Shown one piece after another: positions 8,577 to 64,000 of a stretch of DNA of 64,000 bases; position 1 is the first letter of the stretch; every line of letters begins with the position of its first letter. The stretch lies in contig JAJDAR010000082.1 of assembly GCA_029261775.1 (NCBI GenBank), positions 20,215 to 84,214 of the forward strand, read 5' to 3'. Below the pieces are notes generated by a model, which was not told the DNA's origin, ran no database searches, and was given only the letters and a program-made list of their open reading frames with translations. A program made the position numbers and the translations under genes. The stretch is from Deltaproteobacteria bacterium (lineage in GTDB: Bacteria; Myxococcota_A; UBA9160; UBA6930).

Positions 8577-8586
8577 GAGAACCCGA

Positions 8587-8967
8587 ATGGAGTTCCAGCT
8601 CTTCCAGACCGTCGCGGCCCTGGGTTCGATCGGCCTCGTGGGGATCGTCCTCGAGCTGATCCGGCGTCGCAGCATCCAGGACGAGCTGTGGCTGCCCTGG
8701 CTCGCCCTCTCGGCCGCGCCCCTCTTCCTCAGCCTCTCGACGGGCACGTGGGGTGGCTTCGCCCGATCGCTCGGGGTGATCTACGAGCCGTCCCTGCTGC
8801 TCGCGTTGGGATTGCTGATGGCCTTCGCGATGCTCCTGTACCTGTCGACGGTGGTCTCTCGCCTGATCCGCCACAACCTCCTGTTGGCGCAGGAGGTCGC
8901 GGTACTTCGGGCGAGGGGGCTTGCGCCGCTGGCGACGACAGACCGCTCAGCTCCGGCGGATGGCTAG
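8587..8967 (+). CDS. small membrane protein, DUF2304-like GT2 partner
   Basis: 126 aa with 3-4 hydrophobic helices. The LIRRRSIQDELWLPWL motif resembles the DUF2304 proteins that commonly follow Dpm1-like GT2 genes. Confidence 0.55.
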   Translation: MEFQLFQTVAALGSIGLVGIVLELIRRRSIQDELWLPWLALSAAPLFLSLSTGTWGGFARSLGVIYEPSLLLALGLLMAFAMLLYLSTVVSRLIRHNLLLAQEVAVLRARGLAPLATTDRSAPADG

Positions 8968-9819: not shown

Positions 9820-9924
9820 GGCGAGCTAGGATAGCTGGCCCGTCACTTCCGATCCCCAGGGGGCACCCACCGAGACGGGATCGCGACGGCTCGACTCGAG
9901 GGGTGTCGCTTGGGACTGGAGCGC

Positions 9925-14880: not shown

Positions 14881-14889
14881 GGAGGAGTC

Positions 14890-50149: not shown

Positions 50150-50839
50150 CTACTCGGTGGCTTGCTGAGCCGCCTCGGCCTGCGCCTTCCTTTCGGCCTC
50201 GGCCTGCGCCTTCCCCTCGGGATGGATCTCCTTGAGGATCTCGTCGGAGAGCTGCTTGGAGCTCGTAATGCCGCGCTCCTGCAGCTCCTTGCCCATCTGA
50301 CGGACCATCTCCTGCTTGATGCTGGTCTGGACGAGCTGATCGAGGGTGTGGTCGATGAAGCCGACCGAATAGCTCCCACGCCGGTGGGAGACCACCCGTT
50401 CCTCGCTGTACCAGTAGTCCGCGTCGATGAAGAAGCGGGTGGGTTCGCCGTAGGTCTCGAGCAGGTAGGGCCCGGCATCTGCGAGGTCGGCGCAGCGCAC
50501 GTCCACGAAGTAGAGCTGGTCGGCGGCGAACTTCAGGATCACCTCGCAACCGCCGTCCCTGCCCAACCCCGCCTGGTCTTCGAGGCGGTACTCCTGCAGG
50601 CGGGGAACCGTCACGACGCCGTCCCGGAGCATGTCGCCGGTATCCCCCTGGAGCTCCATCGACGGGTGGAGTGCCTGGGCCTCCGCGACGGTCATGCGGA
50701 ACTGAATGCCGCCCCAGCCGTTGGGCAGCGGTTGGTGGCCATCCTCGGTCGGGCTGGAGGCCCAGCCGGCTCCGGCCGAGACGAGAAGGGTCAGGGCGGC
50801 AGCCAGCCAGCTGCGCCCCGTTCGAGGAAACTGGAGCAT
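50150..50839 (-). CDS. exported hypothetical protein
   Basis: 229 aa. Signal peptide MLQFPRTGRSWLAAALTLLVSAGAGWA and a Lys/Glu/Ala-rich C-terminal tail (KAQAEAERKAQAEAAQQ). GAGGGG lies upstream of the ATG. Confidence 0.55.
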   Translation of the reverse strand: MLQFPRTGRSWLAAALTLLVSAGAGWASSPTEDGHQPLPNGWGGIQFRMTVAEAQALHPSMELQGDTGDMLRDGVVTVPRLQEYRLEDQAGLGRDGGCEVILKFAADQLYFVDVRCADLADAGPYLLETYGEPTRFFIDADYWYSEERVVSHRRGSYSVGFIDHTLDQLVQTSIKQEMVRQMGKELQERGITSSKQLSDEILKEIHPEGKAQAEAERKAQAEAAQQATE

Positions 50840-51032: not shown

Positions 51033-52490
51033 CTACGGGAAGGTCGGACCTGCGCACACGGTCGAGATCTCGGTCAGGGTGTGACCCACGATGGCGGCCA
51101 CCGCCGGATCCGTGGCGACGATCGCCGAGACACCGGTGAGGGTACCGTCGAGGTCGCCCACGAGGGCGCGAGCCGGATCGAACGTGGCACCGACCAGGGA
51201 AGCCGTGGTCAGCGTGAACGTACCGGCACTCGTGCCGGAACCCACATCGAAGAACGTGCCGCTCGAGTCACCCGTCGCGAGCAGGTTGGCACCCGGCGTG
51301 GCCGGAGCGGCCAGCGGGGTCGAACCCGCGTTGCACGGGTCAGGGTCGCCCAGGACATTCAGGGTCGCCTGAATCCGCTGCAGGTTCAGGGCTGCCGAGG
51401 CACCCGCCACCGAGCCGCCAACTGAAATGTTCAGAGTGACGTCTCGACAGACCTTGGAGTCCGGGGCGCCTGCCTGCGCCGTGCAGTTGACGAACCCGAG
51501 GCAGTCGTCCGTGCTGACCGCATCGACGTCTGCGCAGACGGCGATGTCCAGGTTGGGCAGGTCAGCCGAAGCAACCGTCGCAATGTAGCCCTGCGCGCGC
51601 TGCTGCTCGAGGCAGATGGCGAGCGGAAGGGTCGGTGCGAAGGTTCCCTGCAGGCCCTTGCTCGGCCCGCTGACGATGGCGATACCGTCGGCGAGGATCT
51701 CCGGAACGTGGCAGTACTCGGACGTGTTGTTGCCCCTGAGGTCCAGGGTCACACCCGTCGGCGTTCCACTCACCAGCTGGTGGGTGATGAAGCTCGAGGA
51801 CGGCTGTGAGTCGCAATAGCCCGACCAGCACGGACCGGCCGACACTCGGTTGGTCGGAGGACCGTTCAGCGGGGCTGCCATGTCCGCGCACTCCGGGCAC
51901 GCTGCCACACCGCAGGTACCGGTGGCGCAGTCGCCGTCGACTGCACAAGCCACGGTCTCGTCGTCGTTGCAACGCTGGTCCGCCGCGTTGGCAAGAGCCT
52001 CCGCGGTCGCACCGTTGACTGCGTTCTGCACCGACCAGGCGCGCGCGAACGCGGCCATGACCGAGAGGCGAGCACCGACATCACCCGTCGAGAAGACGTT
52101 GGTGTTCAGGATGCCCATGGCGTCCAGGTCGTCATCCGTGCACTTGGCCTTGGCGCCACCCGGAAAACCACCCTTCACCTTGTCGAATGCCTTGCCGAGC
52201 TTGCTCTTCGGATCTCCGGAGATGTCGCCCGAGCCGAGACCGATCTTGATCAGGCCGGCCTGGCACTTCTCGGCCTGCTTGAGCTGGCCCTTGCCCTTGA
52301 GGTCGGTCTTGATCCAACCGTCCACGCACTTGGCCAGTTCCTTCTGGACGTCGGCGGTCGCCTTGGCCGCGTTCTTGGTGATGTCCTTCGTGCACTTGTC
52401 GAGCTGTGCCGAAGCCGCCACCGGGGCGAAGATGAGCGCGCATGCGGCCGCACCCAAAACCCCCAGCTTCTTCAATTGATTGAGATTCAC
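51033..52490 (-). CDS. secreted Cys-rich protein of unknown function
   Basis: 485 aa from GTG 52490, preceded by AGGAGAG. Signal peptide VNLNQLKKLGVLGAAACALIFAPVAASA. Lys-rich helical N-terminal region with spaced Cys, then a Cys/Gly/Thr-rich region. The upstream part of ORF 51033..52748 is not coding-like. Confidence 0.6.
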   Translation of the reverse strand: MNLNQLKKLGVLGAAACALIFAPVAASAQLDKCTKDITKNAAKATADVQKELAKCVDGWIKTDLKGKGQLKQAEKCQAGLIKIGLGSGDISGDPKSKLGKAFDKVKGGFPGGAKAKCTDDDLDAMGILNTNVFSTGDVGARLSVMAAFARAWSVQNAVNGATAEALANAADQRCNDDETVACAVDGDCATGTCGVAACPECADMAAPLNGPPTNRVSAGPCWSGYCDSQPSSSFITHQLVSGTPTGVTLDLRGNNTSEYCHVPEILADGIAIVSGPSKGLQGTFAPTLPLAICLEQQRAQGYIATVASADLPNLDIAVCADVDAVSTDDCLGFVNCTAQAGAPDSKVCRDVTLNISVGGSVAGASAALNLQRIQATLNVLGDPDPCNAGSTPLAAPATPGANLLATGDSSGTFFDVGSGTSAGTFTLTTASLVGATFDPARALVGDLDGTLTGVSAIVATDPAVAAIVGHTLTEISTVCAGPTFP

Positions 52491-52582
52491 GATTCTCTCC
52501 TGTTGATCTGGAACTCGTGCGGCCTCTGGCCCCCGCCGGTGGCCGTTCCAGCGTAAACACCCTTTGGGCTGGTAGGGGGATG

Positions 52583-52598
52583 AGCAAGTTCCATGCCC
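52583..52598 (-). promoter_or_regulatory. candidate sigma54 (-24/-12) promoter
   Basis: Minus strand GGGCAT-GGAAC-TTGCT has GG-N10-GC spacing as in TGGCAC-N5-TTGCW. It lies about 93 nt upstream of the GTG at 52490, in a lower-GC 286-bp intergenic region. Confidence 0.3.
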
Positions 52599-52665
52599 AC
52601 AGGGATCTTTTCCCCTCATAGGCGTTTCCCTGCTCAACTCCCTGGTTTTCCTTCGCTTTCGAAGC

Positions 52666-52696
52666 AGAGGCCCCATGTCGCCGACATGGGGCCTCT
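52666..52696 (-). terminator. strong GC-rich hairpin downstream of dsbA-like gene (possible terminator)
   Basis: AGAGGCCCCATGT-cgccg-ACATGGGGCCTCT is a perfect 13-bp stem about 80 nt past the stop at 52777. It has no clear U-tract. A second 5-bp hairpin (CTTCG-CTTT-CGAAG) lies at 52651-52664. Confidence 0.45.
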
Positions 52697-52776
52697 CTGT
52701 GTGTCCGATCCGTTTCCCACCCGAGGAAGGGGTGTTCCTGCTCACCAACCCCCCGGGGAGAACGATTCGAGGGGCC

Positions 52777-53511
52777 TCAGCTCGCGAGCTGGCGGTCGAT
52801 CACCGCCTTGAACGCCTCGAAGGGCTGGGCGCCCGACAGGAAGTAGCCGTTGATGAAGAAGCTCGGCGTGCCGGTGACGCCCATGCCGCTGGCCTGCTTC
52901 ATGTCGGCATCGATATGCGCCTGGACGGCCGGAGACGCCATGTCCTTCTTGAACTGCTCCACGTCGAGACCCATCTCGCCGGCCCAGGTCGCGTAGTTGT
53001 CCGTCGACATGGTCGCCTGGTTGGCAAAGATCTTGTCGTGCATCTCCCAGAACTTGCCCTGCTTGCCGGCTGCAATGGAGGCCTTGTGCGCGTCCGGAGC
53101 CTTGGTGTGGAAGGCCAGCGGGAAGTGCTTGAAGGCGATCTTGACCTTGTCACCGTACTCCTCGCTCACCTTCGCCAGGGTGGGGTTGACCCGGCTGCAG
53201 AAGGGGCACTGGAAGTCGGAGAACTCGACGATCGTCACCTTCGCGCTGTCGGAGCCCTTCACGTGGGCGTTGGCGAGGGCGATCTCGTACTGCTTGTTCG
53301 GGTCGGGTCCGCGCCGCGGGGCGGGAGCTGCGGCGGGGGCCGCCGCAGCAGCCGCAGGCGCCGCGGCCGCCGGCCGGGCCGCGAGCTCGGCCTGGGCCTC
53401 AGCCATCTGGCTGCCGGCCCGGTCGAGGGACTGGGAAACCTGGAAGGCGCCGATGACGATGGCCGCGCCCAGGATCAGGGCGGCGAGGATGTTTCCGGTG
53501 GCGGAGTTCAT
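52777..53511 (-). CDS. membrane-anchored DsbA-family thiol:disulfide oxidoreductase
   Basis: 244 aa from MNSATGNILAALILGAAIVIGAF (anchor), an Ala/Pro-rich linker, then a thioredoxin fold with FSDFQCPFCSRV (CPFC active site) and GVTGTPSFFING (cis-Pro loop). Confidence 0.85.
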   Translation of the reverse strand: MNSATGNILAALILGAAIVIGAFQVSQSLDRAGSQMAEAQAELAARPAAAAPAAAAAAPAAAPAPRRGPDPNKQYEIALANAHVKGSDSAKVTIVEFSDFQCPFCSRVNPTLAKVSEEYGDKVKIAFKHFPLAFHTKAPDAHKASIAAGKQGKFWEMHDKIFANQATMSTDNYATWAGEMGLDVEQFKKDMASPAVQAHIDADMKQASGMGVTGTPSFFINGYFLSGAQPFEAFKAVIDRQLAS

Positions 53512-53732: not shown

Positions 53733-54551
53733 CTAGGGCCCGGGGGTCCCGTTCACGAAGCCGGGCAGGAAGAGGTTGAAGTCCGAGATCCCGACGGAGC
53801 CGTCCCCGTTCATGTCCGTCCCGACACCGCTGTCCACCGTCGACTGGAAGTCCGGCAGGAAGAGGTTGAAGTCCGAGATCGAGCAGAAGCCGTCGTTGTC
53901 GAAATCGCAGTCGCAGACGTTGCCGTAGCCGTCGCCATCGCGGTCGAACTGACCGGGGTTCGGAACGCCCTCGCAGTTGTCCGAGCAGCCGAGGGTCTGG
54001 CCGGTCGCACAGCGCGGCAGGGCCGGGTTGGTCGGGATGCCGTCGCCGTCGTCGTTGACGACGACCGAGCCGGACTGGGCGAGGGCCGGCAGCGAGCTGC
54101 CCGAGGGAGAGGCGGCACCGGCCTTGCCGGCCAGCGGCCAGGTGCCCGACGGGCCGCCCGCGGGCGCCGTGAAGGTGCAGGTCGCGACCGTGCCGTCTGG
54201 AATCGAGTTGTTGTTCAGGCCGAAGATCCCGAGCCGCAAGAGGCCGCTCGCCGGGGTCGTCTGGGTCAAATCCTTGCCGGCAGGGCTGCCGGGGCCGATC
54301 GCCGCAGCGATCACACAGGTCGGGTTCGGGTCGAGGGCCGACGGGTCGAAGCGGATCTCGAGAGACAGGGCCGACACCTGCTCTCCCGGGCTCGCGAGCA
54401 TCGAGATCGGGATGGTGGCGTCCTCGCCGGAGCCGATCAGATCGGAGCCGATCAGCAGGTCCACCGCAGCGGCCCCGGCCGGCGCGGCGAGCAGGCCGAG
54501 CACCAGGAGCGCGGAAAGGACTCGGGATCGCGAAGCGTTCATCAAATCCAT
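53733..54551 (-). CDS. secreted cohesin-like / TSP3-like / dockerin-like protein
   Basis: 272 aa from MDLMNASRSRVLSALLVLGLLAAPAGAAA (signal peptide). Cohesin-like beta domain (ATIPISML...LSLEIRFDPSALD...TCTFTAPAG), a Ca-binding FDRDGDGYGNVCD, and two EF-hand loops DFDNDGFCSISD and DMNGDGSVGISD, each followed by FNLFLP. Confidence 0.7.
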   Translation of the reverse strand: MDLMNASRSRVLSALLVLGLLAAPAGAAAVDLLIGSDLIGSGEDATIPISMLASPGEQVSALSLEIRFDPSALDPNPTCVIAAAIGPGSPAGKDLTQTTPASGLLRLGIFGLNNNSIPDGTVATCTFTAPAGGPSGTWPLAGKAGAASPSGSSLPALAQSGSVVVNDDGDGIPTNPALPRCATGQTLGCSDNCEGVPNPGQFDRDGDGYGNVCDCDFDNDGFCSISDFNLFLPDFQSTVDSGVGTDMNGDGSVGISDFNLFLPGFVNGTPGP

Positions 54552-54555
54552 TCCC

Positions 54556-57500
54556 TCAGAAGCCCAGGTGGTTGTTGATGGTGAGCTGGACTTCCGCCGC
54601 ATCGACCACGCCGTCGGCCGAGGCGTCCGCGGCGGGGCAGCTCGCGAGGACGTCGATGCCGGCGAAGATGTTGATCACCAGCTGGACCTCGGCAATCGAG
54701 ACACCGCCCTGGCCGTCGCAGTCGCCCACCAGCCCGGTGGCCGGCGTGGTCCCGCCTGCGCCCAGCACGGCAATGCTGCCGGAGAGCCCGTTGACTGGCA
54801 CCGGCACGCCTGTGGGATCCGAGGCGGTGGCGCCGGTGCCGAGGGCGTAGGTGCCCGGCGCCGCGCTGAGGTCGTAGGAGAAGGTGCAGGTGTAGAGGTC
54901 GCCTTCCGGAATCACCTCGTTGCCGAAGGGATCCGCGATCGCGACCCGCCAGATGCCGCTGCCCTGGGAGCTCTGGGCGAGCGACTTGTTGAAGGTCGTA
55001 CCGGGGCCGATCGCGGGGTTGATCACGCAGACCGGGTTCGCATCGAGCAGCGACTGGTTGAAGAAGAGGTCGTTCGACGTGGCGCTGATCTGCACCAGCG
55101 GATCGATGAAGGAGAGGGTCGCCGTGACCCCTACGTCGGTGCCGGGGTCGCCGATCGCCGAGCCGAGCCCGATCGCGGCCTGCGCGCCGGCCACACAGCT
55201 GTCTCCGAAGCCCTCGTCGATGGCCCCGTTGCAGTTGTTGTCGACCCCGTCGCAGAGCTCGAGCGCACCCGGCAGGATCGCCGGATTGCCGTCGTTGCAG
55301 TCGCCGCCGCAGGTCGTGACGCCGTCGCCATCCGAGTCCACCGACACGCCCTCGTCGACCTGGCAGTCGCAGTCGTTGTCGAGGCCGTCGCAGATCTCCG
55401 GGGCGTACGGGTTCACCAGCGCGTTGGTGTCGTCACAGTCGGGCGGCGAGGTGCAGGCCGTCAGGCCGTCGCCGTCCAGGTCCACGCAGCCGAACTCGTC
55501 TGCACCGACGTCGACGACCGCCATCGCATTCGCCCTGCCGTCCTGCACGCGCGGCTGCTCGTCGATGTCCTCGCTCGGAATGCCCGTGGTCGTGCTGTCG
55601 CCGACGTCCACGAGCGGCGAGGAGGGATCGAGGTGGAGGTCGCCGGGACAGCCGCCCGCGACGAACAGCGGATCCGCCGAGAAGCCGTTGGCACCGGCGG
55701 AGCAGGTGCCGCTGAAGTCGAGCGGCACGTTGTTCCAGACGTTGTTGAAGTCGACGACCGAGGTGGCCGGGGCACCGCAGAAGATGCCCGCGCCCGCCTG
55801 GGAGTCGGCGACGATGTTGTTCGTGATCGTGCCGGTGCAGATCCCGAGGTAGATGCCGCCGCCGCCGATCGTCGCGGCGTTCTGCACCAGGGTGTTGTTG
55901 ACGATCTCCAGGGAGCTCGAGCTCTCGCACCAGACGCCACCGCCGGCCGTCGTCGAGACGTTCGAGTCGAAGAAGTTGCTGGCCACGTTCGCAGGGGTGC
56001 CGCCGCTGCCGGGCACGTTGAGCAGGGCCACACCGCCACCACCGCTCCCCAGCGACATGTTCGAGCTGAATCGGTTGCCGCGCACCCGGATCGAGGCGCT
56101 CTCCATCAGCAGGCCGCCGCCGCCCTGGGCGGTGTTGCCGACGAACTCGTTGCCGACGACCAGCGCCGAGGACTCGAAGCCGTAGAAGCCACCGCCGCGG
56201 CCGCCCGCGTTCACGTTGGTCACGTTGCCGCTGAAGATGTTGTCCTTCAGAGTTGGCGTGCCGGTGTTGACCGCGACGCCACCGCCATGGGTGCCGGCCA
56301 GGTTGCCGTCGATCACATTGTCCTCGAGATCGCTGGTGGCCGCCTTGATGTAGACACCGCCGCCCTGCAGTCGCGACTGGTTGTTCTGGATCGTGTTGCG
56401 GCGCACGTCGATGGTCGTCGCCTCGAGGGCGATGCCACCACCGTTCTGGAGCGAGCGGTTGCCCGCGATCACGTTGTCCTCGATCGTGCCCGTGGCCGCG
56501 AAGACCTTGATCGCCCCTCCGTCGCCGGCGTTGAGGTTGGCGGTCAGCACGTTGTTCTGGATCGCCACCGAGGCGATGTTCACGTCGATGCCGCCGCCGC
56601 TTCCGGCGTTGCTGATCGTGAAGCCGTCCACCGTCTTCTTGCCGCCGCCGAGGCCCAGGGTCAGGGTCGGGGTGCTGCCGCCGCCCTGGATCGTCGTCAC
56701 GCTCGGGCCGCTCGAGCTCTGCAGCGTGAAGCGCTTGCCGGTCAGGGTCAGGTTCTCGAGGTAGAGACCGGGCTCGACGATGATCGCCGCGCTGCTGCCG
56801 CTGGCGCAGTTGATGGCGTCCTGGATCGTCGGGTAGGGCTGGAAGATCGTCCCGCAGCTTCCGCAGGAGACCGGCGTCGGGCAGTTCGAGGTCGGATCCA
56901 CATACAGGGAGTCGGGATCGCAGACGTCGCCGAGCCCGTCGTTGTCGGCGTTCAGCTGCGAGGGGTTGAACTGGAAGGGGCAGTTGTCCACCAGCCCGCA
57001 GATCTCGTCGCCGTCGATGTCGTTGTCGAAGTCACCCGGGCAGGCGTCGCAAGCGTCCGGCGTGCCATCGCCGTCCTGGTCGGCGGTGTCGAGCACGTTC
57101 GAGCAGCCGGCCAAGGCGTCACAGGTGTCGACCGTGCAGGGATCGCCGTCGTCGCAGTTGATCGGCGTGTGGACCTCGCCGAAGTTCGAGTCACAGGAGT
57201 CGGCGGTACAGACGCTGCCGTCGTCCACGTTCAGCGGGGAACCACCCGCGCAGCTTCCACCCTGGCAGGTGTCGCCGGTGGTGCAGGCGTCGCTGTCGAA
57301 GCACGGGAAGCCGTCGATCAGCGGTGAGGGCACGCAGGCGTCGGCTACGTCGTCACAGAGGCCGAAGTTGCACTGATCGCTCGCACTCGAGCAGTCGCGC
57401 GGCGTGCCGGCGATGCACACCTGGGTCACGCAGGTGTCGTTCTCGGTGCAGAAGAAGCCGTCGTCGCAGGCCCCACCGTCCGGGATCGGCGTGGCGAAGC

Positions 57501-60500
57501 ACCCGGTGACCGAGTCGCAGGCATCGGTCGTGCAGGCCTGGCCGTCGTCACAGATGATCGGAGTGCCGGTGCAGGACCCGGTCAGACACTGGTCACCCGA
57601 GGTACAGGCATCGACGTCGGTGCACCCGGTGCCATCGGGCAGGTTCGGGTTGAAGCAGCCCGTGATCGGATCGCAGGAGTCGGTCGTGCAGAGGTTGCCG
57701 TCCGTGCAGTCCAGGAAGGTCAGACCCACGCACTGGCCCACCAGGCAGACGTCGCTGGGGGTACACACGCTGTTGTCGCTGCAGACCGTGCCGTCCTGGA
57801 AGTTGTTGAACTCGCAGGCGTCGTTGGTCTCGTTGCAGAAGCCGACCCGGCAGGAGGTGTCGAGGAAGGTGCAGTCGACCGGCGGGCCGCCGTTGCAGAC
57901 ACCGGCCGTACAGGTGTCGGTGCTGGTGCAGAACAGGTTGTCGTCGCAGCTGCTTCCGTCTGCGATCGGCACGTTCTGGCAGCCGAGGATCGCGTCGCAG
58001 CTGTCCGCGGTGCAGTCGTTGCCGTCGTCGCAGTTGAGGGTCGCACCCGTCTGGCAGACGCCGGCCTGGCAGAGCTCGGTGCCGTTGCAGAGATCGGCAT
58101 CGAGGCAGCTCGTCCCGTCGGTCACGGCCACGTTCTGGCAGCCGAAGACCGCGTCACAGCTGTCGGCCGTACAGGGGTTGCCGTCGTCGCAGTTCACCGC
58201 GCCGCCGCCGCTGCAGATCCCGAGCTGACAGGTCTCGCCGCTGGTGCACGCGTCGCTGTCGTTGCAGATGGTGCCATCGGTCACGGCGACGTTCTGGCAG
58301 CCCAGGATCGCATCGCAGCTGTCTGCCGTGCAGGCGTTGCCATCGTCGCAGTTCAGCGGCAGGCCCGGCACGCAGACGCCGGTGTTGCAGATCTCGGTGC
58401 CGGTGCAGACGTCATTGTCCGAACAGGTGGTGCCGTTCGGCAGCGACACGTTGACGCAGCCGGTGACCGCGTCGCAGGCGTCCGCCGTGCACAGGTTGCC
58501 GTCGTCGCAGTTGAGCGGCGTCGAGCCGGTGCAGACACCGAGCTGGCAGCTGTCCACCGTGGTGCAGGTATTGCTGTCATCGCAGGTCGTGCCGTCGACG
58601 ACCGGAGCATTCGCGCAACCCGTCACCGAGTCGCAGCTGTCGGCGGTGCAGGCGTTGCCGTCGTCGCAGTTCAGCGGCAGGCCCGGCAGGCAGATCCCGC
58701 TCTGGCACAGCTCGTTGCCGGTGCAGACGTCGCCGTCGGAGCAGCTGCTGCCGTCCGGAATCGCGAGGTTCTGGCAGCCGACCACCGCATCGCAGGAGTC
58801 CGCCGTGCAGAGGTTGCCATCGTCGCAGTTCAGCGCCGGGCCGCCCGAACAGGCACCCGCCTGACAGCTGTCGGCCGTGGAGCAGGCGTTGCTGTCGTCG
58901 CAGGTCGTGCCGTCCGTCACGGGGACGTTCTGGCAGCCGAGCACGAGGTCGCAGCTGTCCGCGGTGCACTCGTTGCCGTCGTCGCAGTTCGGACCCACGC
59001 CGCCGGTGCAGGCGCCCACCTGACACGTATCGCCGGTCGTACAGGCATTGCCGTCGTCGCAGCTCGTGCCGTCCGTCACGGCGACGTTCTGGCAGCCCAG
59101 GATCGCGTCGCAGCTGTCCGCCGTGCACTCGTTGCCGTCGTCGCAGTTGGGCGGAGCCCCGCCGGTGCAGGTGCCGGTCTGGCAGCTGTCGGCCGTGGTG
59201 CAGGCGCTGCCGTCGTCGCAGCTGGTGCCGTCCGCGACCGGGACGTTCTGGCAGCCGAGCACCGCGTCGCAGCTGTCTGCCGTACAGGCATTGCCGTCGT
59301 CACAGTTCGGGGCCGTGCCGGGCTGGCAGGCGCCCGCACCATCACAGGTCTCGGCCCCGTTGCAGACGGTCGCATCGTCGCAGGCCGTCCCCGCGCCCAC
59401 GGGCACGTTCTGGCAGCCAAGCACTGCGTCGCAGCTGTCCGCCGTACAGGGATTGCCGTCGTCGCAGTTCGGGGCGGTGCCGGGCTGGCAGGCCCCGCCG
59501 CCGTCGCAGGTCTCGCCGCCATTGCAGAGCGTGGCGTCGTCACAGGCGGTCCCGGCCGCCACGGGCACGTTCTGGCAGCCGAGCACCAGGTCACAGCTGT
59601 CGGCGGTGCACGGGTTGCCGTCGTCGCAGTTCGGGCCGACGCCGCCGGTGCAGGCACCCGCCTGGCAGCTGTCACCCGTGCTGCAGGCGTCGCCGTCGTC
59701 ACAGAGGGTCCCGTCGACGACCGCGACGTTCTGGCAGCCCGAGACCGCGTCGCAGCTGTCGGCCGTGCACTCGTTGCCGTCGTCACAAAGCAGCGGGTTG
59801 CCGCTCACGCAGGTGCCGCCGAGCTGGCAGGTCTCGTCGCCGTTGCAGACGTCGCCGTCGGCGCAGCTGGTGCCGTCGGCGACGGGCACGTTCTGACAGC
59901 CCAGGACCGCATCGCAGCTGTCGGCCGTGCAGGGGTTGCCGTCGTCGCAGTTCAGCGGGTTGCCGCTCACGCAGATCCCGCTCAGCTGGCAGGTCTCGGC
60001 GCCGTTGCAGACGTCGCCGTCGGCGCAGGTGGTGCCGTCCGGGAGGGTCGCGTTCTGGCAGCCGAGGACCGCGTCGCAGCTGTCGGCCGTGCACAGGTTG
60101 CCGTCGTCGCAGTTCGGGGGCGGGCCAGCCTGGCAGGCGCCGGCGCCGTCGCAGGTCTCCCCGCCGTTGCACAGATCGCCGTCGGCGCAGGCCGTGCCGG
60201 CCGAGAGCGGGACGTTCTGGCAGCCGAGGACTGCATCGCAGCTGTCCGCCGTGCAGACGTTGCCGTCGTCGCAGTTGGCGCCGGCCCCGACGCAGGCGCC
60301 CGCCTGGCAGGAATCGCCGCTCGTGCAGACCGTGCCGTCGTCACAGACCGTGCCGTTCGTCACGGGGTTGTTGACGCAGCCCGTGCTCGGATTGCAGCTG
60401 TCGGTGGTGCAGGTCTCGCCGTCGTTGCAGTTGGGGGGCGGACCACCCGAGCACGAGCCGGACTGGCAGGTGTCGGTGGTCGTGCAGAAGCTGCCGTCCT

Positions 60501-63500
60501 CGCAGGAGGTGCCGTTCGCGACCGGGATCGCGTCACAGATGTCGAGGGACTCGTTGCAGACGCCGAGGGTGCACTGGGTGGTCGAGCCCGAGCAGTCGAT
60601 CGGGCCACCACCCTGGCAGGCACCGATCTGACAGGTCTCGCCGGTGGTGCAGAAGAGCCCATCCTCGCAGGAGGTGCCGTCTGCCACGGGCACGTTCTGG
60701 CAGCCCAGGATCGCGTCGCAGCTGTCGGCCGTGCAGGGATCGCCGTCGTCGCAGTTCAGCGGGGGACCGGCGCTGCAGGCGCCCGCCTGGCAGGACTCCG
60801 CACCGTTGCACAGGTCGGCATCGACGCAGCTGGTGCCGTCCGTCACCGGCACGTTCTGGCAGCCCAGGATCGCGTCGCAGCTGTCGGCCGTGCAGGGATT
60901 GCCGTCGTCACAGTTCGGCGCGGTGCCGGGCTGGCAGGTCGCCGCCGCGTCACAGGTCTCACCGCCGTTGCACAGATCGCCGTCCGCGCAGCTCGTTCCC
61001 GCCGCCACCGGCGTGTTCTGGCAGCCCAGCACGAGGTCGCAGCTGTCTGCCGTACACGGGTTGCCGTCGTCGCAGTTCGGACCCACGCCGCCGGTGCAGG
61101 CGCCCACCTGGCAGCTGTCGCCGGTCGTGCAGGAGTTGCCGTCGTCGCAGCTCGTTCCGTCCGCGACGGGCACGTTCTGGCAGCCGAGCACCGCATCGCA
61201 GCTGTCCGCGGTGCACTCGTTGCCGTCGTCACAGAGGAGCGGGTTGCCGCTCACGCAGGTGCCGCCGAGCTGGCAGGTCTCCGCACCGTTGCAGACGTCG
61301 CCGTCGGCGCAGCTCGTGCCATCGGCCACGGGCACGTTCTGGCAGCCCAGGACCGCGTCGCAGCTGTCGGCCGTGCACGGATTGCCGTCGTCGCAGTTCA
61401 GCGCCGTGCCGGGCTGGCAGGCGCCGCCCGCGTCACAGGTCTCGGCGCCGTTGCAGAGCGTCGCGTCGTCGCAGGCGGTTCCGGCGGCGACGGGCACGTT
61501 CTGGCAGCCCAGGACCGCGTCGCAGCTGTCGGCCGTGCACGGATTGCCGTCGTCGCAGTTCGGACCCACGCCGCCGGTGCAGGCCCCCACCTGGCAGCTG
61601 TCGCCGGTCGTGCAGGAGTTGCCGTCGTCGCAGCTCGTTCCGTCCGCGACGGGCACGTTCTGGCAGCCGAGCACCGCATCGCAGCTGTCCGCCGTGCACT
61701 CGTTGCTGTCGTCGCAGTCGAGCGGGTTGCCGCTCACGCAGATCCCGCTCAGCTGACAGGTCTCGTCACCGTTGCAGGCGTCGCCGTCCCCGCAGCTCGT
61801 GCCGTCCGCAACGGGCACGTTCTGACAGCCGAGCACCGCATCGCAGCTGTCGGCCGTGCAGAGGTTGCCGTCGTCGCAGTTCAGCGCGGTGCCGGGCTGA
61901 CAGGCCCCGGCCGCGTCGCAGGTCTCGGCCCCGTTGCAGAGCGTCGCGTCGTCACACGCGGTTCCGGCCGCCACCGGCACGTTCTGGCAGCCGAGGATCG
62001 CGTCGCAGCTGTCCGCCGTGCACGGATTGCCGTCGTCGCAGTTCAGCGCCGTGCCGGCCTGACAGGTTCCACCGGCGTCGCAGGTCTCGGCGCCGTTGCA
62101 AAGGGTCGCGTCATCGCAGGCCGTCCCGGCCGCCACCGGAACACTCTGGCAGCCCAGGATCGCGTCGCAGCTGTCCGCCGTGCACGGGTTGCCGTCGTCG
62201 CAGTTCAGCGCCGTGCCGGCCTGACAAGTTCCGCCCGCGTCGCAGGTCTCGGCGCCGTTGCAGAGGGTCGCATCGTCGCAGGCCGTTCCGGCCGCCACCG
62301 GCGTGTTCTGGCAGCCCAGCACCAGGTCGCAGCTGTCTGCCGTACACGGGTTGCCGTCGTCGCAGTTCGGACCCACCCCGCCGGTGCAGGCGCCCACCTG
62401 GCAGCTGTCGCCGGTCGTGCAGGAGTTGCCGTCGTCGCACGTCGTCCCGTCCGCGACGGGCGCGTTCTGGCAGCCGAGCACCGCATCGCAGCTGTCGGCC
62501 GTGCACTCGTTGCCGTCGTCGCAGTTGATCGGGTTGCCACTCACGCAGATCCCGCTCAGCTGACAGGTCTCGGCACCGTTGCAGACGTCGCCGTCCCCAC
62601 AGCTCGTGCCGTCGGCGAGGGGGACGTTCTGGCAGCCGAGCACCGCGTCGCAGCTGTCGGCCGTGCACGGATTGCCGTCATCGCAGTTCAGCGGCGCGCC
62701 GGAAGAGCACGCACCCGCCTGGCAGCTCTCGGCTCCGTTGCAGAGGTCGGCGTCGGCACAGCTCGTGCCGTTCGTCACCGGGACGTTCTGGCAGCCGAGC
62801 ACCGCATCACAGCTGTCGGCTGTGCAGGGGTTGCTGTCGTCGCAGTTCGCTGCGGTCCCGGTACAGGCTCCTGTCTGGCAGCTGTCCGCCGAGGTGCACA
62901 CGGACCCGTCGTCGCAGGCGGTCCCGTTGGCCACCGGGTTGTTCACACAGCCCGTGCTCGGATTGCAGCTGTCGCTGGTGCAGGTCTCGCCGTCATTGCA
63001 GTTGGGGGGCGAACCGCCCGAGCAGGAGCCCGACTGGCAGGTGTCGGCGGTCGTGCAGAAGCTGCCGTCCTCGCAGCTCGTCCCGTCGGCCACCGGAACG
63101 GCATCACAGAGGTCGGTCGCCTCGTTGCAGACGCCAAGGGTGCACTGGGTAGTCGCGCTCGAGCAGTCGATCGGGCCGCCGCCCTGGCAGGTGCCGGTCT
63201 GGCAGATGTCTCCGGAGGTGCAGAAGAGCCCGTCCTCGCAGGAGGTCCCATCCGCCACCACGACGTTCTGGCAGCCCAGGACCGCATCGCAGCTGTCGGC
63301 CGTGCACGGATTGCCGTCGTCGCAGTTCAGGGCCGTGCCGGTCTGGCAGGTGCCACCCGCGTCGCAGGTCTCGGCGCCGTTGCAGACCGTCGCGTCATCG
63401 CACGCGGTCCCGGCGGCCACCGGCACGTTCTGGCAGCCGAGCACTGCGTCACAGCTGTCCGCGGTGCAGGGATTGCCGTCGTCGCACGCGAGAGGCGTCC

Positions 63501-64000
63501 CCGCCTGGCAGGTGCCGCCCGCATCGCAGGTCTCGGCACCGTTGCAGAGGGTCGCGTCGTCACAGGCCGTCCCGGCCGCCACGGGCACGTTCTGGCAGCC
63601 GAGCACCGCATCGCAGCTGTCCGCGGTGCAGGGATTGCCGTCGTCGCACGCGAGCGGTGCGCCGGCCTGGCAGGTGCCCCCTGCATCGCAGGTCTCGGCG
63701 CCGTTGCAGACCGTGGCGTCGTCACAGGTCGTCCCGGCGGCGACCGGCACGTTCTGGCAACCCAGGACGGCGTCGCAGCTGTCCGCCGTACAGGGGTTGA
63801 GATCGTCACAGTCCACCGGGTTGCCGCTCACGCAGATCCCGCTCAGCTGACAAGTCTCGTCACCGTTGCAGACATCGCCGTCGGCGCAGCTCGTGCCATC
63901 CGCGAGGGGCACGTTTTGACAGCCGAGGACCGCATCGCAGCTGTCGGCGGTGCAGAGGTTGCCGTCGTCGCAGCTCAGCGCCGTGCCGGCCTGGCAGGTG
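54556..64000 (-). CDS. giant secreted multi-domain Cys-rich repeat protein (5' end outside window)
   Basis: The frame is open from 54556 to the window edge. The M at 63912 is an internal GTG (Val), and codons 63913-64000 continue the repeat (...TCQAGTALSCDDGNLCTADSCDAVLGCQN). More than 3,147 codons lie in the window. Order N to C: about 43 Cys-rich repeats, TSP3-like Asp-rich repeats, a parallel beta-helix, two MopE-like metal-binding motifs, a cohesin-like domain and a dockerin. Confidence 0.9.
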   Translation of the reverse strand, partial: TCQAGTALSCDDGNLCTADSCDAVLGCQNVPLADGTSCADGDVCNGDETCQLSGICVSGNPVDCDDLNPCTADSCDAVLGCQNVPVAAGTTCDDATVCNGAETCDAGGTCQAGAPLACDDGNPCTADSCDAVLGCQNVPVAAGTACDDATLCNGAETCDAGGTCQAGTPLACDDGNPCTADSCDAVLGCQNVPVAAGTACDDATVCNGAETCDAGGTCQTGTALNCDDGNPCTADSCDAVLGCQNVVVADGTSCEDGLFCTSGDICQTGTCQGGGPIDCSSATTQCTLGVCNEATDLCDAVPVADGTSCEDGSFCTTADTCQSGSCSGGSPPNCNDGETCTSDSCNPSTGCVNNPVANGTACDDGSVCTSADSCQTGACTGTAANCDDSNPCTADSCDAVLGCQNVPVTNGTSCADADLCNGAESCQAGACSSGAPLNCDDGNPCTADSCDAVLGCQNVPLADGTSCGDGDVCNGAETCQLSGICVSGNPINCDDGNECTADSCDAVLGCQNAPVADGTTCDDGNSCTTGDSCQVGACTGGVGPNCDDGNPCTADSCDLVLGCQNTPVAAGTACDDATLCNGAETCDAGGTCQAGTALNCDDGNPCTADSCDAILGCQSVPVAAGTACDDATLCNGAETCDAGGTCQAGTALNCDDGNPCTADSCDAILGCQNVPVAAGTACDDATLCNGAETCDAAGACQPGTALNCDDGNLCTADSCDAVLGCQNVPVADGTSCGDGDACNGDETCQLSGICVSGNPLDCDDSNECTADSCDAVLGCQNVPVADGTSCDDGNSCTTGDSCQVGACTGGVGPNCDDGNPCTADSCDAVLGCQNVPVAAGTACDDATLCNGAETCDAGGACQPGTALNCDDGNPCTADSCDAVLGCQNVPVADGTSCADGDVCNGAETCQLGGTCVSGNPLLCDDGNECTADSCDAVLGCQNVPVADGTSCDDGNSCTTGDSCQVGACTGGVGPNCDDGNPCTADSCDLVLGCQNTPVAAGTSCADGDLCNGGETCDAAATCQPGTAPNCDDGNPCTADSCDAILGCQNVPVTDGTSCVDADLCNGAESCQAGACSAGPPLNCDDGDPCTADSCDAILGCQNVPVADGTSCEDGLFCTTGETCQIGACQGGGPIDCSGSTTQCTLGVCNESLDICDAIPVANGTSCEDGSFCTTTDTCQSGSCSGGPPPNCNDGETCTTDSCNPSTGCVNNPVTNGTVCDDGTVCTSGDSCQAGACVGAGANCDDGNVCTADSCDAVLGCQNVPLSAGTACADGDLCNGGETCDGAGACQAGPPPNCDDGNLCTADSCDAVLGCQNATLPDGTTCADGDVCNGAETCQLSGICVSGNPLNCDDGNPCTADSCDAVLGCQNVPVADGTSCADGDVCNGDETCQLGGTCVSGNPLLCDDGNECTADSCDAVSGCQNVAVVDGTLCDDGDACSTGDSCQAGACTGGVGPNCDDGNPCTADSCDLVLGCQNVPVAAGTACDDATLCNGGETCDGGGACQPGTAPNCDDGNPCTADSCDAVLGCQNVPVGAGTACDDATVCNGAETCDGAGACQPGTAPNCDDGNACTADSCDAVLGCQNVPVADGTSCDDGSACTTADSCQTGTCTGGAPPNCDDGNECTADSCDAILGCQNVAVTDGTSCDDGNACTTGDTCQVGACTGGVGPNCDDGNECTADSCDLVLGCQNVPVTDGTTCDDSNACSTADSCQAGACSGGPALNCDDGNLCTADSCDAVVGCQNLAIPDGSSCSDGDVCTGNELCQSGICLPGLPLNCDDGNACTADSCDSVTGCANAPVVDGTTCDDSNTCTTVDSCQLGVCTGSTPLNCDDGNLCTADACDAVTGCVNVSLPNGTTCSDNDVCTGTEICNTGVCVPGLPLNCDDGNACTADSCDAILGCQNVAVTDGTICNDSDACTSGETCQLGICSGGGAVNCDDGNPCTADSCDAVFGCQNVAVTDGTSCLDADLCNGTELCQAGVCQTGATLNCDDGNDCTADSCDAILGCQNVPIADGSSCDDNLFCTSTDTCTAGVCNGGPPVDCTFLDTSCRVGFCNETNDACEFNNFQDGTVCSDNSVCTPSDVCLVGQCVGLTFLDCTDGNLCTTDSCDPITGCFNPNLPDGTGCTDVDACTSGDQCLTGSCTGTPIICDDGQACTTDACDSVTGCFATPIPDGGACDDGFFCTENDTCVTQVCIAGTPRDCSSASDQCNFGLCDDVADACVPSPLIDGFPCFDSDACTTGDTCQGGSCAGGSPLNVDDGSVCTADSCDSNFGEVHTPINCDDGDPCTVDTCDALAGCSNVLDTADQDGDGTPDACDACPGDFDNDIDGDEICGLVDNCPFQFNPSQLNADNDGLGDVCDPDSLYVDPTSNCPTPVSCGSCGTIFQPYPTIQDAINCASGSSAAIIVEPGLYLENLTLTGKRFTLQSSSGPSVTTIQGGGSTPTLTLGLGGGKKTVDGFTISNAGSGGGIDVNIASVAIQNNVLTANLNAGDGGAIKVFAATGTIEDNVIAGNRSLQNGGGIALEATTIDVRRNTIQNNQSRLQGGGVYIKAATSDLEDNVIDGNLAGTHGGGVAVNTGTPTLKDNIFSGNVTNVNAGGRGGGFYGFESSALVVGNEFVGNTAQGGGGLLMESASIRVRGNRFSSNMSLGSGGGGVALLNVPGSGGTPANVASNFFDSNVSTTAGGGVWCESSSSLEIVNNTLVQNAATIGGGGIYLGICTGTITNNIVADSQAGAGIFCGAPATSVVDFNNVWNNVPLDFSGTCSAGANGFSADPLFVAGGCPGDLHLDPSSPLVDVGDSTTTGIPSEDIDEQPRVQDGRANAMAVVDVGADEFGCVDLDGDGLTACTSPPDCDDTNALVNPYAPEICDGLDNDCDCQVDEGVSVDSDGDGVTTCGGDCNDGNPAILPGALELCDGVDNNCNGAIDEGFGDSCVAGAQAAIGLGSAIGDPGTDVGVTATLSFIDPLVQISATSNDLFFNQSLLDANPVCVINPAIGPGTTFNKSLAQSSQGSGIWRVAIADPFGNEVIPEGDLYTCTFSYDLSAAPGTYALGTGATASDPTGVPVPVNGLSGSIAVLGAGGTTPATGLVGDCDGQGGVSIAEVQLVINIFAGIDVLASCPAADASADGVVDAAEVQLTINNHLGF
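54559..54726 (-). other. C-terminal dockerin (paired EF-hand) module of the giant protein
   Basis: Two canonical 12-residue Ca loops, DCDGQGGVSIAE and DASADGVVDAAE, are each followed by VQL(V/T)IN helices. The spacing is typical of type I dockerins. Confidence 0.7.
54727..55176 (-). other. cohesin-like domain of the giant protein
   Basis: DVGVTATLSFIDPLVQISATSNDLFFNQSLLD...CVINPAIGPG...LYTCTFSYDLSAAPGTYAL has the same pattern as the N-terminal domain of the downstream 272-aa protein. Confidence 0.55.
55500..56820 (-). other. right-handed parallel beta-helix (PbH1-type) region of the giant protein
   Basis: About 20 successive ~23-aa turns with N-x-(I/V/F)-x-x-N and GGG(I/V/L) motifs, for example IQNNVLTANLNAGDGGAIKV, IAGNRSLQNGGGIALE, IQNNQSRLQGGGVYIK and IDGNLAGTHGGGVAVN. 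Confidence 0.75.
57091..64000 (-). repeat. in-frame tandem coding repeat array, unit ~162 nt (~54 aa, 8 Cys)
   Basis: Consensus CDDGNPCTADSCDAVLGCQNVPVA(A/D)GT(A/S)C(D/A)D(A/G)xxCNGAETCxxGGxCQxGxxLN. About 43 units by manual count. Many copies are near-identical at the DNA level. Confidence 0.9.

Follow-up and report, generated by a model that had tools for sequence, protein, structure and literature searches.

The segment between 57,091 and 64,000 is the repeat core of one real gene, not of many. Recent duplication or conversion is limited to a small part of this array, namely three copies of a 483-nt triplet of units within 60,913–62,685, and most of the DNA similarity from unit to unit is due to selection on the protein together with a codon bias of 92% GC at third positions (GC3). 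Two older, paralogous landmark blocks account for a recurrence at 2,571 nt, which is no evidence of a recent 16-unit duplication. The array is likely to be the core of a gene for a very large, secreted, disulfide-rich protein that evolves in two zones, with recent exchange confined to the three triplets.

The reading frame that includes the array translates as 3,147 codons without an internal stop over 9.4 kb (Table 1), and, as it is still open at the end of the window (the whole 64-kb stretch of DNA analysed here), the N-terminus of the giant protein lies outside. GC3 of this ORF is 0.92, and the long high-GC3 ORFs on the strand opposite the array are by-products. The predicted product belongs to Pfam PF00526 (Dicty_CTDC), which it matches in 39 separate stretches with 639.6 bits (E = 9.6e-198) against a gathering score of 27 bits. 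Five further regions were recognised between the array and the stop codon. The TSP3-like segment scores 15.6 bits with Pfam TSP_3, which is below threshold, and matches thrombospondin-2 and COMP among PDB sequences (E = 1e-6 to 4e-5). It is followed by the parallel beta-helix domain, which also has a weak match to NCBIfam NosD_copper_fam, by the two MopE-type motifs, and by a cohesin-like domain that shares 39% identity over 130 aa (E = 4e-21) with the Pfam-positive cohesin of the protein encoded downstream. The final module is only dockerin-like, with 15 bits for Pfam Dockerin_1 (PF00404) against a cut-off of 22.9, but by eye its translation shows a duplicated D-x-D-G-x-V-x-x-x-E-V-Q segment with the calcium-loop and helix pattern.

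Table 1. Features of the giant gene, its repeat array and the adjacent genes (positions in the window).
Feature	Position	Strand	Details
DsbA-family thiol:disulfide oxidoreductase	52777–53511	−	Membrane-anchored; CPFC active site; Pfam DSBA PF01323, 105 bits
Downstream gene	53733–54551	−	ATG 4 nt past the stop of the giant gene; GAGGGA Shine-Dalgarno-like motif overlaps that stop
Giant ORF	54556–63999	−	At least 3,147 codons; stop at 54,556–54,558; open at window end
Dockerin-like C-terminal module	54574–54726	−	
Cohesin-like domain of giant protein	54766–55101	−	
Two MopE-type putative metal-binding Cys motifs	55200–55420 (approximate)	−	Pfam PF11617, 71–83 bits, 2 stretches
Right-handed parallel beta-helix domain	55729–56826	−	Pfam Beta_helix 43.1 bits, NosD 35.5 bits, both above cut-offs
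TSP type-3-like calcium-binding repeats	56956–57081	−	Directly C-terminal to the array
Repeat array	57076–63972	−	At least 42 units of 53/54 aa (159/162 nt)
E-F block copy 4 (partial)	57157–57468	−	480 nt (160 codons) from copy 3
E-F block copy 3	57553–57948	−	2,721 nt (907 codons) from copy 2
E-F block copy 2	60274–60669	−	aa 1111–1242; exactly 857 codons (2,571 nt) from copy 1
E-F block copy 1	62845–63240	−	aa 254–385
B-C-A triplet T4	59467–59949	−	Units 26–28; older copy
B-C-A triplet T3	60913–61395	−	Units 17–19; in tandem with T2
B-C-A triplet T2	61396–61878	−	Units 14–16
B-C-A triplet T1	62203–62685	−	Units 9–11; 483-nt super-unit
C-type unit u18	61075–61233	−	Stretch noted at 61,071; 97% identity to u15, 95% to u10
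C-type unit u15	61558–61716	−	Stretch noted at 61,554
C-type unit u10	62365–62523	−	Stretch noted at 62,361
Longest exact repeat, 107 nt	61103–61209		Second copy at 61,586–61,692, lag 483 nt

The downstream gene predicts a protein with a signal peptide, a cohesin domain, TSP3-like repeats and dockerin-like repeats. Its match to Pfam Cohesin (PF00963) is above the cut-off, although marginally (24.4 bits against 24.1). The next gene encodes a member of the DsbA family, as it matches the DSBA model and carries a CxxC motif. The best C-terminal ortholog of the giant protein, found at a locus designated L019, is 60% identical over 100% of the query, and the gene order there is the same, with the giant gene, the cohesin gene and the DsbA gene. 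Adjacency of the DsbA gene is conserved, and its product shares 68% identity (tblastx) with L019 positions 15,048–15,614. In L019 a Sec-type signal peptide directly precedes the array and, as the N-terminus of the protein in the window lies beyond its edge, export of that protein is inferred from this ortholog; its cysteine content and the DsbA encoded nearby also fit with export. The array gene lies on the margin of a 47-kb island for glycoconjugate biosynthesis, and a TPR protein is encoded at 48,305–50,140. No Rfam families or tRNAs were found in the 64-kb window, and Pfam scans of the larger ORFs in the window detected no reverse transcriptase.

Each unit of the array is made up of an a-module of 28 aa (CDDGNxCTADSCDxxxGCxNxP), which corresponds to Dicty_CTDC, and a b-module of 24–26 aa, which is a second four-cysteine module and occurs as subtypes A, B, C and D. 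Around 85 four-cysteine modules of ~24–28 aa are in view, and 81 fit the expression C-x5-C-x4/5-C-x4-6-C. All cysteine columns are invariant in the 38 five-unit windows, and the cysteine pattern is kept by the units without exception. Unit u20 is 53 aa long. Tandem Repeats Finder detects two periods between 57,940 and 64,000, one of 162 nt (37.7 copies, 71% matches), in agreement with the ~162-nt unit of the initial annotation, and one of 483 nt (12.5 copies). The order of unit subtypes begins BAAA-E-x-F-D-BCA-AA-BCA-BCA-D-E-x-F. The nested repeat architecture that had been proposed is supported, with the 24–28-aa module contained in the 53/54-aa unit, the unit in the 483-nt B-C-A super-unit, and the E-F landmark blocks superimposed. 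An AlphaFold model of units 4–8 (pLDDT 81) predicts one beta-hairpin per module; its pTM of 0.34 is what an extended chain would be expected to give. A match of the array units to PDB 9e5c, an alanine/glutamate-rich repeat protein (E = 1.6e-4), was rejected as a spurious compositional match because no cysteines align.

There are 99 exact repeats of at least 25 nt in the array, concentrated in 58,900–63,900, and the lag is a multiple of 3 in all 99. Unequal exchange would therefore generate in-frame length variants. For the same reason, and with units of 159 or 162 nt, a phase-variable contingency locus was rejected, since recombination between the repeats would change length and not frame.

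The E-F landmark is a three-unit block with the motif CEDGLFCT..GGGPIDCS..TTQCTLGVCNE..CEDGSFCTT..CNDGETCT.DSCNPSTGCVNNPV. Its recurrence at precisely the distance given in the initial annotation is seen in copies 1 and 2, and the more degenerate versions placed near 57,830 and 57,350 correspond to copy 3 and to the partial copy 4. Copies 1 and 2 share 84% protein and 83% DNA identity over 160 codons, and sub-stretches of the pair, for example 60,335–60,527, reach 85–88%. Copies 3 and 4 share 45–55% protein identity with the other copies, and copy 3 is 54–55% identical to copies 1 and 2. For the three E-F units, the best DNA match is the counterpart 16 units away (0.86, 0.85 and 0.80), and as the next-best matches reach only 0.67–0.78, this pairing is far beyond chance. 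Synonymous identity in the pair is 0.70 against 0.64 expected (p = 0.08), which is no excess. As codon bias alone would make the synonymous sites look about this similar, the pair at 2,571 nt is an old duplication. The same block is also found close to C-terminal domains in two database proteins (P0121 and P0122).

The spacing had been taken as a sign of a higher-order duplication of about 16 units. As a recent or clean event this did not hold, since there is no 16-unit register between the landmarks, and only the three E-F units find their best match at +16. An older form of the idea, in which a ~2.6-kb block was duplicated whole, perhaps twice, and later events erased collinearity except in the E-F units, would account for copies spaced by 857 and 907 codons, for the D-type unit that precedes both copy 2 and copy 3, and for a long HSP of 75% identity at a lag of ~2,559 nt. 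The +16-unit diagonal is also the highest of the offsets (mean 0.776) when the E-F units are counted, and an HSP of 80.5% over 2,284 nt at a lag of ~2,096 nt in L019 indicates that multi-unit duplications happen in this gene family. However, with the three landmark units removed the diagonal falls to 0.768 and is indistinguishable from several other offsets (0.76–0.79 for offsets 3, 5, 8, 9, 12 and 13). Unit-type strings also differ between the two intervals, D-BCA-AA-BCA-BCA-D in one and A-B-BCA-A-CCC... in the other, and autocorrelation at lag 2,571 (0.442) is lower than at lags 162, 483 and 1,929. A true 16-unit higher-order repeat is thus considered unlikely and, given that the E-F synonymous sites are at background, any such event would be old. 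Copies 3 and 4 are not decayed relics of the duplication, as each has its best protein match in the positionally equivalent block of L019 (10,373–10,765 for copy 3 and 10,853–11,209 for copy 4).

The 483-nt B-C-A triplet, unlike the 16-unit block, is a higher-order tandem repeat in which blocks in register are more alike than the units within a block. T1, T2 and T3 are 88–91% identical in register compared with ~72–76% for neighbouring units, and T1 shares 90.9% DNA identity with T2 and 89.0% with T3. The stretches of ~145 nt starting at 61071, 61554 and 62361 that were initially described as almost identical are the C-type units of these triplets, and are indeed 95–99% identical (98.6% between the stretches at 61,071 and 61,554, and 95.2% between each of these and the one at 62,361). 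Near-identity of DNA copies is therefore a property of the C-type units and their flanks, but it does not extend to the 2,571-nt pair, at 83%. At identical residues, T1–T3 use identical codons in 82–83% of cases against 63% expected (p = 4e-7 to 6e-8), and u10, u15 and u18 share 46–49 of 50–52 synonymous codons (p = 1e-5 to 1e-7). The older copy T4 is 83–86% identical to T1–T3 in DNA, with a synonymous identity of 0.69–0.73. At the informative sites of T1–T3, 41 adjacent pairs are of the same type compared with 24.6 ± 3.9 in shuffled data (p = 5e-5), a mosaic pattern found in recently duplicated or gene-converted repeats, although a chimeric assembly would give the same signal.

Over all unit pairs, mean synonymous codon identity is 0.68, where 0.64 is expected. 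For the 259 pairs of equal length the median is 0.70, and a Bonferroni correction leaves only four, those among u10, u15 and u18 and the pair u1/u14. An excess of synonymous identity is thus present in T1–T3 and u1/u14, and absent from the E-F pair and most of the array. The expected values (0.62–0.64) assume independent codon draws from array-wide usage, and position-specific codon preference could inflate the apparent excess, but it would not explain why only three triplets stand out. These background values, which are already high at a GC3 of 0.92, would suit the view that no DNA has been exchanged recently and that even the 95–99% stretches reflect purifying selection on a near-invariant peptide combined with extreme codon bias, as would the small rise over expectation in the mean and the small number of individually significant pairs. 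This is highly improbable, however, as the excess seen in u10, u15 and u18 covers whole 483-nt triplets, the longest exact match is 107 nt, and T4 encodes nearly the same peptide without showing the excess. Recent unit expansion or gene conversion, which had been suggested for the array in general, accordingly stands for the triplets at 60,913–62,685, and most other pairs are accounted for by codon bias and protein conservation.

The triplets and their mosaics could also have arisen in a short-read or metagenome assembly, through mis-joins, collapse or chimerism between strains, in which case the order and number of units would not be biological. Such an artefact would be in keeping with the 107-nt repeat, with the abundance of exact repeats of 25 nt or more, with the mosaic site patterns of T1–T3, which are also expected from a chimeric assembly of variants, and with the visible damage in the public L019 array. 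Likewise, the intact ORF is no proof of correct order, because lags are multiples of 3 and a mis-join would keep the frame. On the other side, reads of 150 nt span every exact repeat, and no 127-mer is repeated in the array, where non-unique 55-mers number 158 of 7,046 and non-unique 99-mers 18 of 7,002. The frame is intact over its full length, no unit departs from the cysteine pattern, and the order of landmarks is mirrored in L019. An artefact is therefore judged decidedly unlikely. The assembly risk raised in the initial annotation was overstated; as the longest exact repeat is 107 nt and no 127-mer recurs, it is modest, and the concern narrows from the whole 7 kb to ~1.8 kb (60.9–62.7 kb).

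Comparison with L019 separates the two zones. L019 contains four E-F blocks in the same landmark order, E-F ... E-F ... E-F-E, with spacings of ~2,081, 3,127 and 480 nt compared with 2,571, 2,721 and 480 nt in the window, the L019 values being only approximate because of ~40 apparent frame changes in its array, which may contain many errors or belong to a pseudogene. Each of copies 3 and 4 is closest to its positional ortholog, whereas within each genome copies 1 and 2 resemble one another (82.9% and 84.4%) more than they do their counterparts in the other genome (74–78%). Likewise, nearly all of units 1–31 (the exceptions are u8 and u24) have a better match within the array (0.83–0.97) than in L019 (0.71–0.85), and the central units have no one-to-one orthology with L019. 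A single array thus offers a clean contrast between a stable C-proximal part, where E-F blocks match their positional counterparts, and a central part evolving in concert. No close strains of the locus were found in the collections searched (GTDB species genomes, JGI metagenome contigs and protein databases), and an exact look-up of the TPR protein in public assemblies gave no record. Among GTDB species genomes, the C-terminal 881 aa retrieved only distant relatives, with at most 53% identity over short pieces, and the scan of JGI metagenome contigs returned one short contig (L010; 48% identity, 2.8 kb) that is too short for the array.

The array gene is a fast-evolving repeat gene of no unusual type, and its kind is already well represented in environmental bacteria. 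At E ≤ 1e-10 its product has more than 2,551 matches among database proteins, the best being 43–60% identical over part of the query and labelled as Myxococcota or Deltaproteobacteria MAGs, and thousands of similar giant proteins are present in metagenomes. Bacterial giant Dicty_CTDC proteins (PF00526, 'slime mold repeat-containing') carry the same repeat family in 1,700–5,500 aa with tens of a-modules each. In several (P0005, P0043 and P0121–P0123) the repeats are joined, as here, to a parallel beta-helix, MopE motifs or both, and a search with the pattern CS..QC..G.CNE..C places the a' module of the E-F block in P0003, P0005 and P0040 as well. However, none in the collections searched is a close relative, the best full-length match being 43% identical and the best C-terminal match 60%, and the cohesin-like and dockerin-like tail with neighbouring cohesin and DsbA genes was seen only in the window and in L019. 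We know of no bacterial giant of this family that has been studied experimentally.

EcmA, EcmB and their relatives in Dictyostelium, the founding Dicty_CTDC family, likewise have the same Pfam repeat and are secreted, cysteine-rich and tandemly repeated. These are listed as matrix proteins (PMC4931340, Table 4), and a matrix or stalk role for the bacterial protein may be inferred by likeness to them. They differ in being eukaryotic and in having a plain 24-aa repeat, whereas here the repeat alternates with a second module in a 53/54-aa unit and is followed in the same protein by beta-helix, MopE, cohesin-like and dockerin-like domains. Structurally, the model of units 4–8 is best matched by the cysteine-rich region of the Entamoeba histolytica Gal/GalNAc lectin heavy chain (PDB 9gjf and related entries). 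Both appear as extended stacks of small disulfide-bonded beta-hairpin modules, but the match is weak (E = 3.7e-4, TM 0.17, 19% identity) and would be an analogy of fold style only.

In repeat adhesins of staphylococci and streptococci, in alpha C protein and in Bap/Esp, repeat number changes by in-frame recombination and the repeats evolve in concert. The array resembles these in having coding units that are a multiple of 3 nt, long exact tracts between units, paralogous units that are closer within than across genomes, and what may be a length that differs between relatives. Classic adhesin arrays are often >95% identical throughout, whereas most units here are 70–85% identical with saturated synonymous sites and only the three triplets are recent.

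The favoured reading, a two-zone repeat core, may be put as follows. The region would encode the tandem repeats of a protein of the cell surface or matrix that is secreted and rich in disulfides, with two predicted four-cysteine beta-hairpin modules in each 159/162-nt unit, one of the Dicty_CTDC ('slime mould') type and a second of four subtypes. The C-proximal third (~57,100–58,900) would be old, with diverged units and with E-F copies 3 and 4 in ortholog-matching positions. The central and N-proximal part (~58,900–63,970) would be subject to turnover through unequal recombination in frame, through slippage and through gene conversion from one unit to another, and the most recent events probably involve the B-C-A triplet in its three copies within 60,913–62,685. 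After Sec export, the repeats would fold into a long disulfide-stapled rod, of a length set by the number of units, that carries the parallel beta-helix, calcium- and metal-binding motifs and the cohesin-like and dockerin-like pair at its C-terminal end. The small cohesin/dockerin protein encoded nearby probably tethers or cross-links this rod, and the neighbouring DsbA probably oxidises it.

Where a genome is high in GC, codon bias can explain most of the DNA similarity between coding repeats, and any claim of recent expansion should first allow for it. For annotation, the array should be treated as one gene; at the public L019 locus, an array of this kind is broken into fragmentary and antisense gene calls. 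The conserved neighbourhood of a cohesin/dockerin partner and a DsbA gene provides a testable idea for how the common bacterial 'slime-mould repeat' giants are folded and anchored. As both proteins predicted to be secreted have a cohesin-like module along with a dockerin-like one, they could chain together. We tentatively suggest that the giant protein, the cohesin/dockerin protein and DsbA could form a conserved three-gene module that builds a self-assembling, disulfide-stapled extracellular fibre or matrix. The reach of this structure would be set by the number of repeats, with the central array evolving in concert and the C-proximal units remaining unchanged. If true, bacteria would have in this module a counterpart to the sheath proteins of slime moulds.

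The region from 57,091 to 64,000 translates entirely within a single minus-strand ORF (Table), which has a third-position GC content of 0.92. Its tandem array of Dicty_CTDC ('slime mould') repeats segments into 42 or more units, each 53 or 54 aa long (159 or 162 nt). The Pfam repeat itself is the a-module of each unit (28 aa, CDDGNxCTADSCDxxxGCxNxP...); a b-module of 24-26 aa follows, its four cysteines set in the same rhythm. Four b-module subtypes were found, named A, B, C and D here, and a distinctive three-unit landmark, the E-F block, is written E x F. From N- to C-terminus, the unit string is B A A A / E x F / D B C A A A B C A B C A D / E x F / A B B C A A C C C ... D / E x F / E x, and Tandem Repeats Finder reports periods of 162 nt (37.7 copies) and 483 nt (12.5 copies). 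Long plus-strand ORFs opposite the array (57,377-63,850), such as 62,579-63,850 (423 aa) and 60,644-61,756 (370 aa), several with a GC3 of 0.89-0.94, most likely arise as a side effect of the repetitive, high-GC3 coding strand rather than being genes. A 24-nt tandem repeat at 50,172-50,220 (2 copies, 92% match), within an ORF at 50,150-50,839, is unrelated to the array.

Features of the array and its surroundings
Feature	Position	Strand	Remarks
Giant ORF	stop at 54,556-54,558; open at the window's last full codon	minus	at least 3,147 codons in view; N-terminus outside
E-F copy 1	62,845-63,240	minus	aa 254-385
E-F copy 2	60,274-60,669	minus	aa 1111-1242
E-F copy 3 (weaker)	57,553-57,948	minus	907 codons beyond copy 2
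E-F copy 4 (weaker)	57,157-57,468	minus	160 codons beyond copy 3
B-C-A triplet T1	62,203-62,685	minus	
B-C-A triplet T2	61,396-61,878	minus	
B-C-A triplet T3	60,913-61,395	minus	
B-C-A triplet T4	59,467-59,949	minus	
Small secreted cohesin protein gene	53,733-54,551	minus	signal peptide, cohesin domain, TSP3-like and dockerin-like repeats
Membrane-anchored DsbA-family oxidoreductase gene	52,777-53,511	minus	CPFC site; downstream of giant and cohesin genes
571-aa ORF	51,036-52,748	minus	just downstream of DsbA gene
Island, YfhO, PMT_2/GT39-like and glycosyltransferase proteins	1-47,700		two YfhO, at least 4 PMT_2/GT39-like, GT1/4, GT2 (twice), GT9, GT87
Island, other transferases	1-47,700		AT3 and AT3-SGNH acyltransferases, MBOAT, four methyltransferases
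Island, remaining	1-47,700		epimerase, two sulfatases, LPG-synthase-like membrane protein, AMP-binding enzyme

E-F copies 1 and 2 are separated by 857 codons, exactly the 2,571 nt given in the initial annotation, and the degenerate versions it placed near 57,830 and 57,350 correspond to the two weaker copies. The best DNA match of each E-F unit is its counterpart 16 units away (0.86, 0.85 and 0.80, with next-best matches of 0.67-0.78). The further proposal of a higher-order duplication of about 16 units was not supported, as no clean 16-unit repeat is seen by autocorrelation, in the unit diagonals or in the unit-type strings of the two inter-landmark intervals, which are not collinear. Base-by-base autocorrelation over 57,091-64,000 (background 0.29 ± 0.05) is 0.528 at lag 162, 0.498 at 1,929, 0.490 at 483, 0.460 at 2,574 and 0.442 at 2,571. 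In the unit identity matrix the +16 diagonal is top (0.776) owing only to the three landmark units, and without them it falls to 0.768, on par with offsets 3, 5, 8, 9, 12 and 13 (0.76-0.79).

At 92% GC3, units encoding the same peptide share most codons by chance, and recency of copying was therefore assessed by comparing the identical-codon fraction at identical residues with the expectation from the array's own codon usage. Mean codon identity over all unit pairs is 0.68 against 0.64 expected, and only 4 of 259 same-length pairs are significant after Bonferroni correction (u15/u18, u10/u15, u10/u18 and u1/u14, units being numbered from the N-terminal side). The ~145-nt stretches at 61,071, 61,554 and 62,361, described earlier as almost identical, are indeed so (pairwise 98.6%, 95.2% and 95.2%) and correspond to C-type units u18, u15 and u10. 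Triplets T1-T3, each 483 nt, share 88-91% in-register DNA identity and a synonymous identity of 0.82-0.83, where codon usage predicts 0.63 (p = 4e-7 to 6e-8); T4 has little synonymous excess (0.69-0.73, p = 0.008-0.10). Recent unit expansion or gene conversion is supported for T1-T3 but not for the E-F pair at 2,571 nt, in which 94 of 134 codons are identical (0.70 against 0.64 expected, p = 0.08) and which is an old duplication kept by selection on the protein.

The variable sites of T1-T3 form a mosaic, T2 and T3 alternating from run to run as the odd copy, and 41 adjacent informative sites share the same pattern compared with 24.6 ± 3.9 in shuffles (p = 5e-5). Synonymous excess and mosaicism are confined to these three triplets. 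The pattern is characteristic of gene conversion or recombination among repeats, and chimeric assembly would look the same. The array contains 99 maximal exact repeats of at least 25 nt, nearly all between 58,900 and 63,900, the three longest measuring 107 nt (61,103 and 61,586), 72 nt and 62 nt. K-mer counts found no repeated 127-mer in the array, and non-unique k-mers number 18 of 7,002 99-mers and 158 of 7,046 55-mers. A short-read assembler could really be misled over only a small part of the array, about 60.9-62.7 kb, which narrows the mis-assembly risk raised earlier for the whole region. An intact frame is not proof of unit order because mis-joins would also keep the frame: in all 99 exact repeats the lag is divisible by three. 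The repeats offer substrate for RecA-type exchange, and for the same reason any such exchange would have in-frame length variants as its products.

More than 2,551 database proteins match the full giant protein at E ≤ 1e-10, mostly metagenome Dicty_CTDC proteins of 1,700-5,500 aa, the named ones labelled Myxococcota or Deltaproteobacteria; the best match has 43% identity over 73% of the query, and another has 60% over 42%. To our knowledge, giant bacterial Dicty_CTDC proteins are a common, unstudied class. Four strong matches (P0010, P0028, P0091 and P0102) carry Dicty_CTDC arrays fused to RHS/YD-repeat toxin shells, and no toxin part is in view in the giant protein, whose N-terminus is outside the window. 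These fusions agree with a preprint that counts the repeat as one of the N-terminal adhesion modules found in bacterial teneurin-like proteins (bioRxiv 10.1101/2025.11.11.687626).

With the non-repeat C-terminus as query, true orthologs were recovered: P0121 (60% identity, 100% of query), P0122 (52%) and P0123 (47%). The P0121 contig, L019, is syntenic, with the giant gene followed by a cohesin-like gene and a DsbA gene (14,889-15,620), and its giant protein begins with a Sec-type signal peptide directly followed by the array. In the L019 array (about 3,456-11,240) a-modules are spread over the three reading frames, and there are about 40 apparent changes of frame, which could reflect long-read indel errors or a decaying gene. 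Public gene calls at 3,343-10,000 break the array into several forward fragments, accompanied by three long antisense 'genes' that have no Pfam hit. At 5,558-5,774 and 7,645-8,080 some a-modules are spaced at 72 nt (24 aa) with no b-module between; this plain Dictyostelium-type arrangement is found in parts of L019 but not in the window array.

L019 likewise carries four E-F blocks (near 5,165, 7,246, 10,373 and 10,853), spaced by about 2,081, 3,127 and 480 nt across an array with many frame changes, compared with 2,571, 2,721 and 480 nt in the window. Copies 3 and 4 pair with their positional counterparts, whereas copies 1 and 2 are closer to each other within a genome (82.9% in the window, 84.4% in L019) than between genomes (74-78%). 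The best match within the window array (0.83-0.97) is closer than the best in L019 (0.71-0.85) for almost every one of units 1-31, and one-to-one orthology of these units with L019 is absent, many sharing the same L019 best match. Together, the pairing and the unit matches indicate that the array comprises a stable C-proximal zone and a centre evolving in concert.

The array is directly followed by predicted thrombospondin type-3-like calcium-binding repeats, then a right-handed parallel beta-helix (Beta_helix 43 bits, NosD 35 bits), two MopE-type Cys motifs, a cohesin-like domain (39% identity to the neighbour's cohesin, E = 4e-21) and a dockerin-like tail scoring below the Pfam threshold. 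Units 4-8 were modelled with AlphaFold from 38 aligned five-unit windows of the giant gene itself. The model has one beta-hairpin per module (mean pLDDT 81); its pTM of 0.34 is as expected for an extended chain. Its best PDB match, the cysteine-rich region of the Entamoeba Gal/GalNAc lectin heavy chain, is weak (E = 3.7e-4, TM 0.17), and a PDB sequence search with the repeat returned no matching solved structure.

The ATG of the cohesin gene lies 4 nt past the giant gene's stop, which is overlapped by a Shine-Dalgarno-like GAGGGA, suggesting translational coupling with the giant dockerin-bearing protein. Because the gene order is shared with L019, DsbA may be a dedicated oxidative-folding helper. 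The 571-aa ORF has no match in a Pfam scan, and since a signal-peptide-like segment, LGVLGAAACALIFAPVAASA, starts ~90 residues in, translation probably begins inside it and would give a secreted protein that contains cysteines. The giant gene stands at the edge of a large glycoconjugate or envelope biosynthesis island that fills the first 47 kb of the window.

Published support for a mechanism is sparse; in dictyostelids, Dicty_CTDC proteins are matrix proteins (PMC4931340). On the most likely mechanism, the giant protein would be exported and oxidised by the DsbA next door, and it would fold into a long disulfide-stapled rod with a beta-helix displayed at its head, tethered or cross-linked via cohesin-dockerin contacts. 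Through unequal recombination, slippage and gene conversion among its units, the central array would grow, shrink and become more uniform. The unit map, landmark spacing, triplet-restricted excess, in-frame repeats and lack of central unit orthology are the observed parts of this scheme. The codon-bias correction, the narrowed assembly caveat and the conserved neighbourhood of giant, cohesin and DsbA genes are the useful products of the analysis. The giant protein is a new member of a well-populated class, and its repeat dynamics are ordinary.
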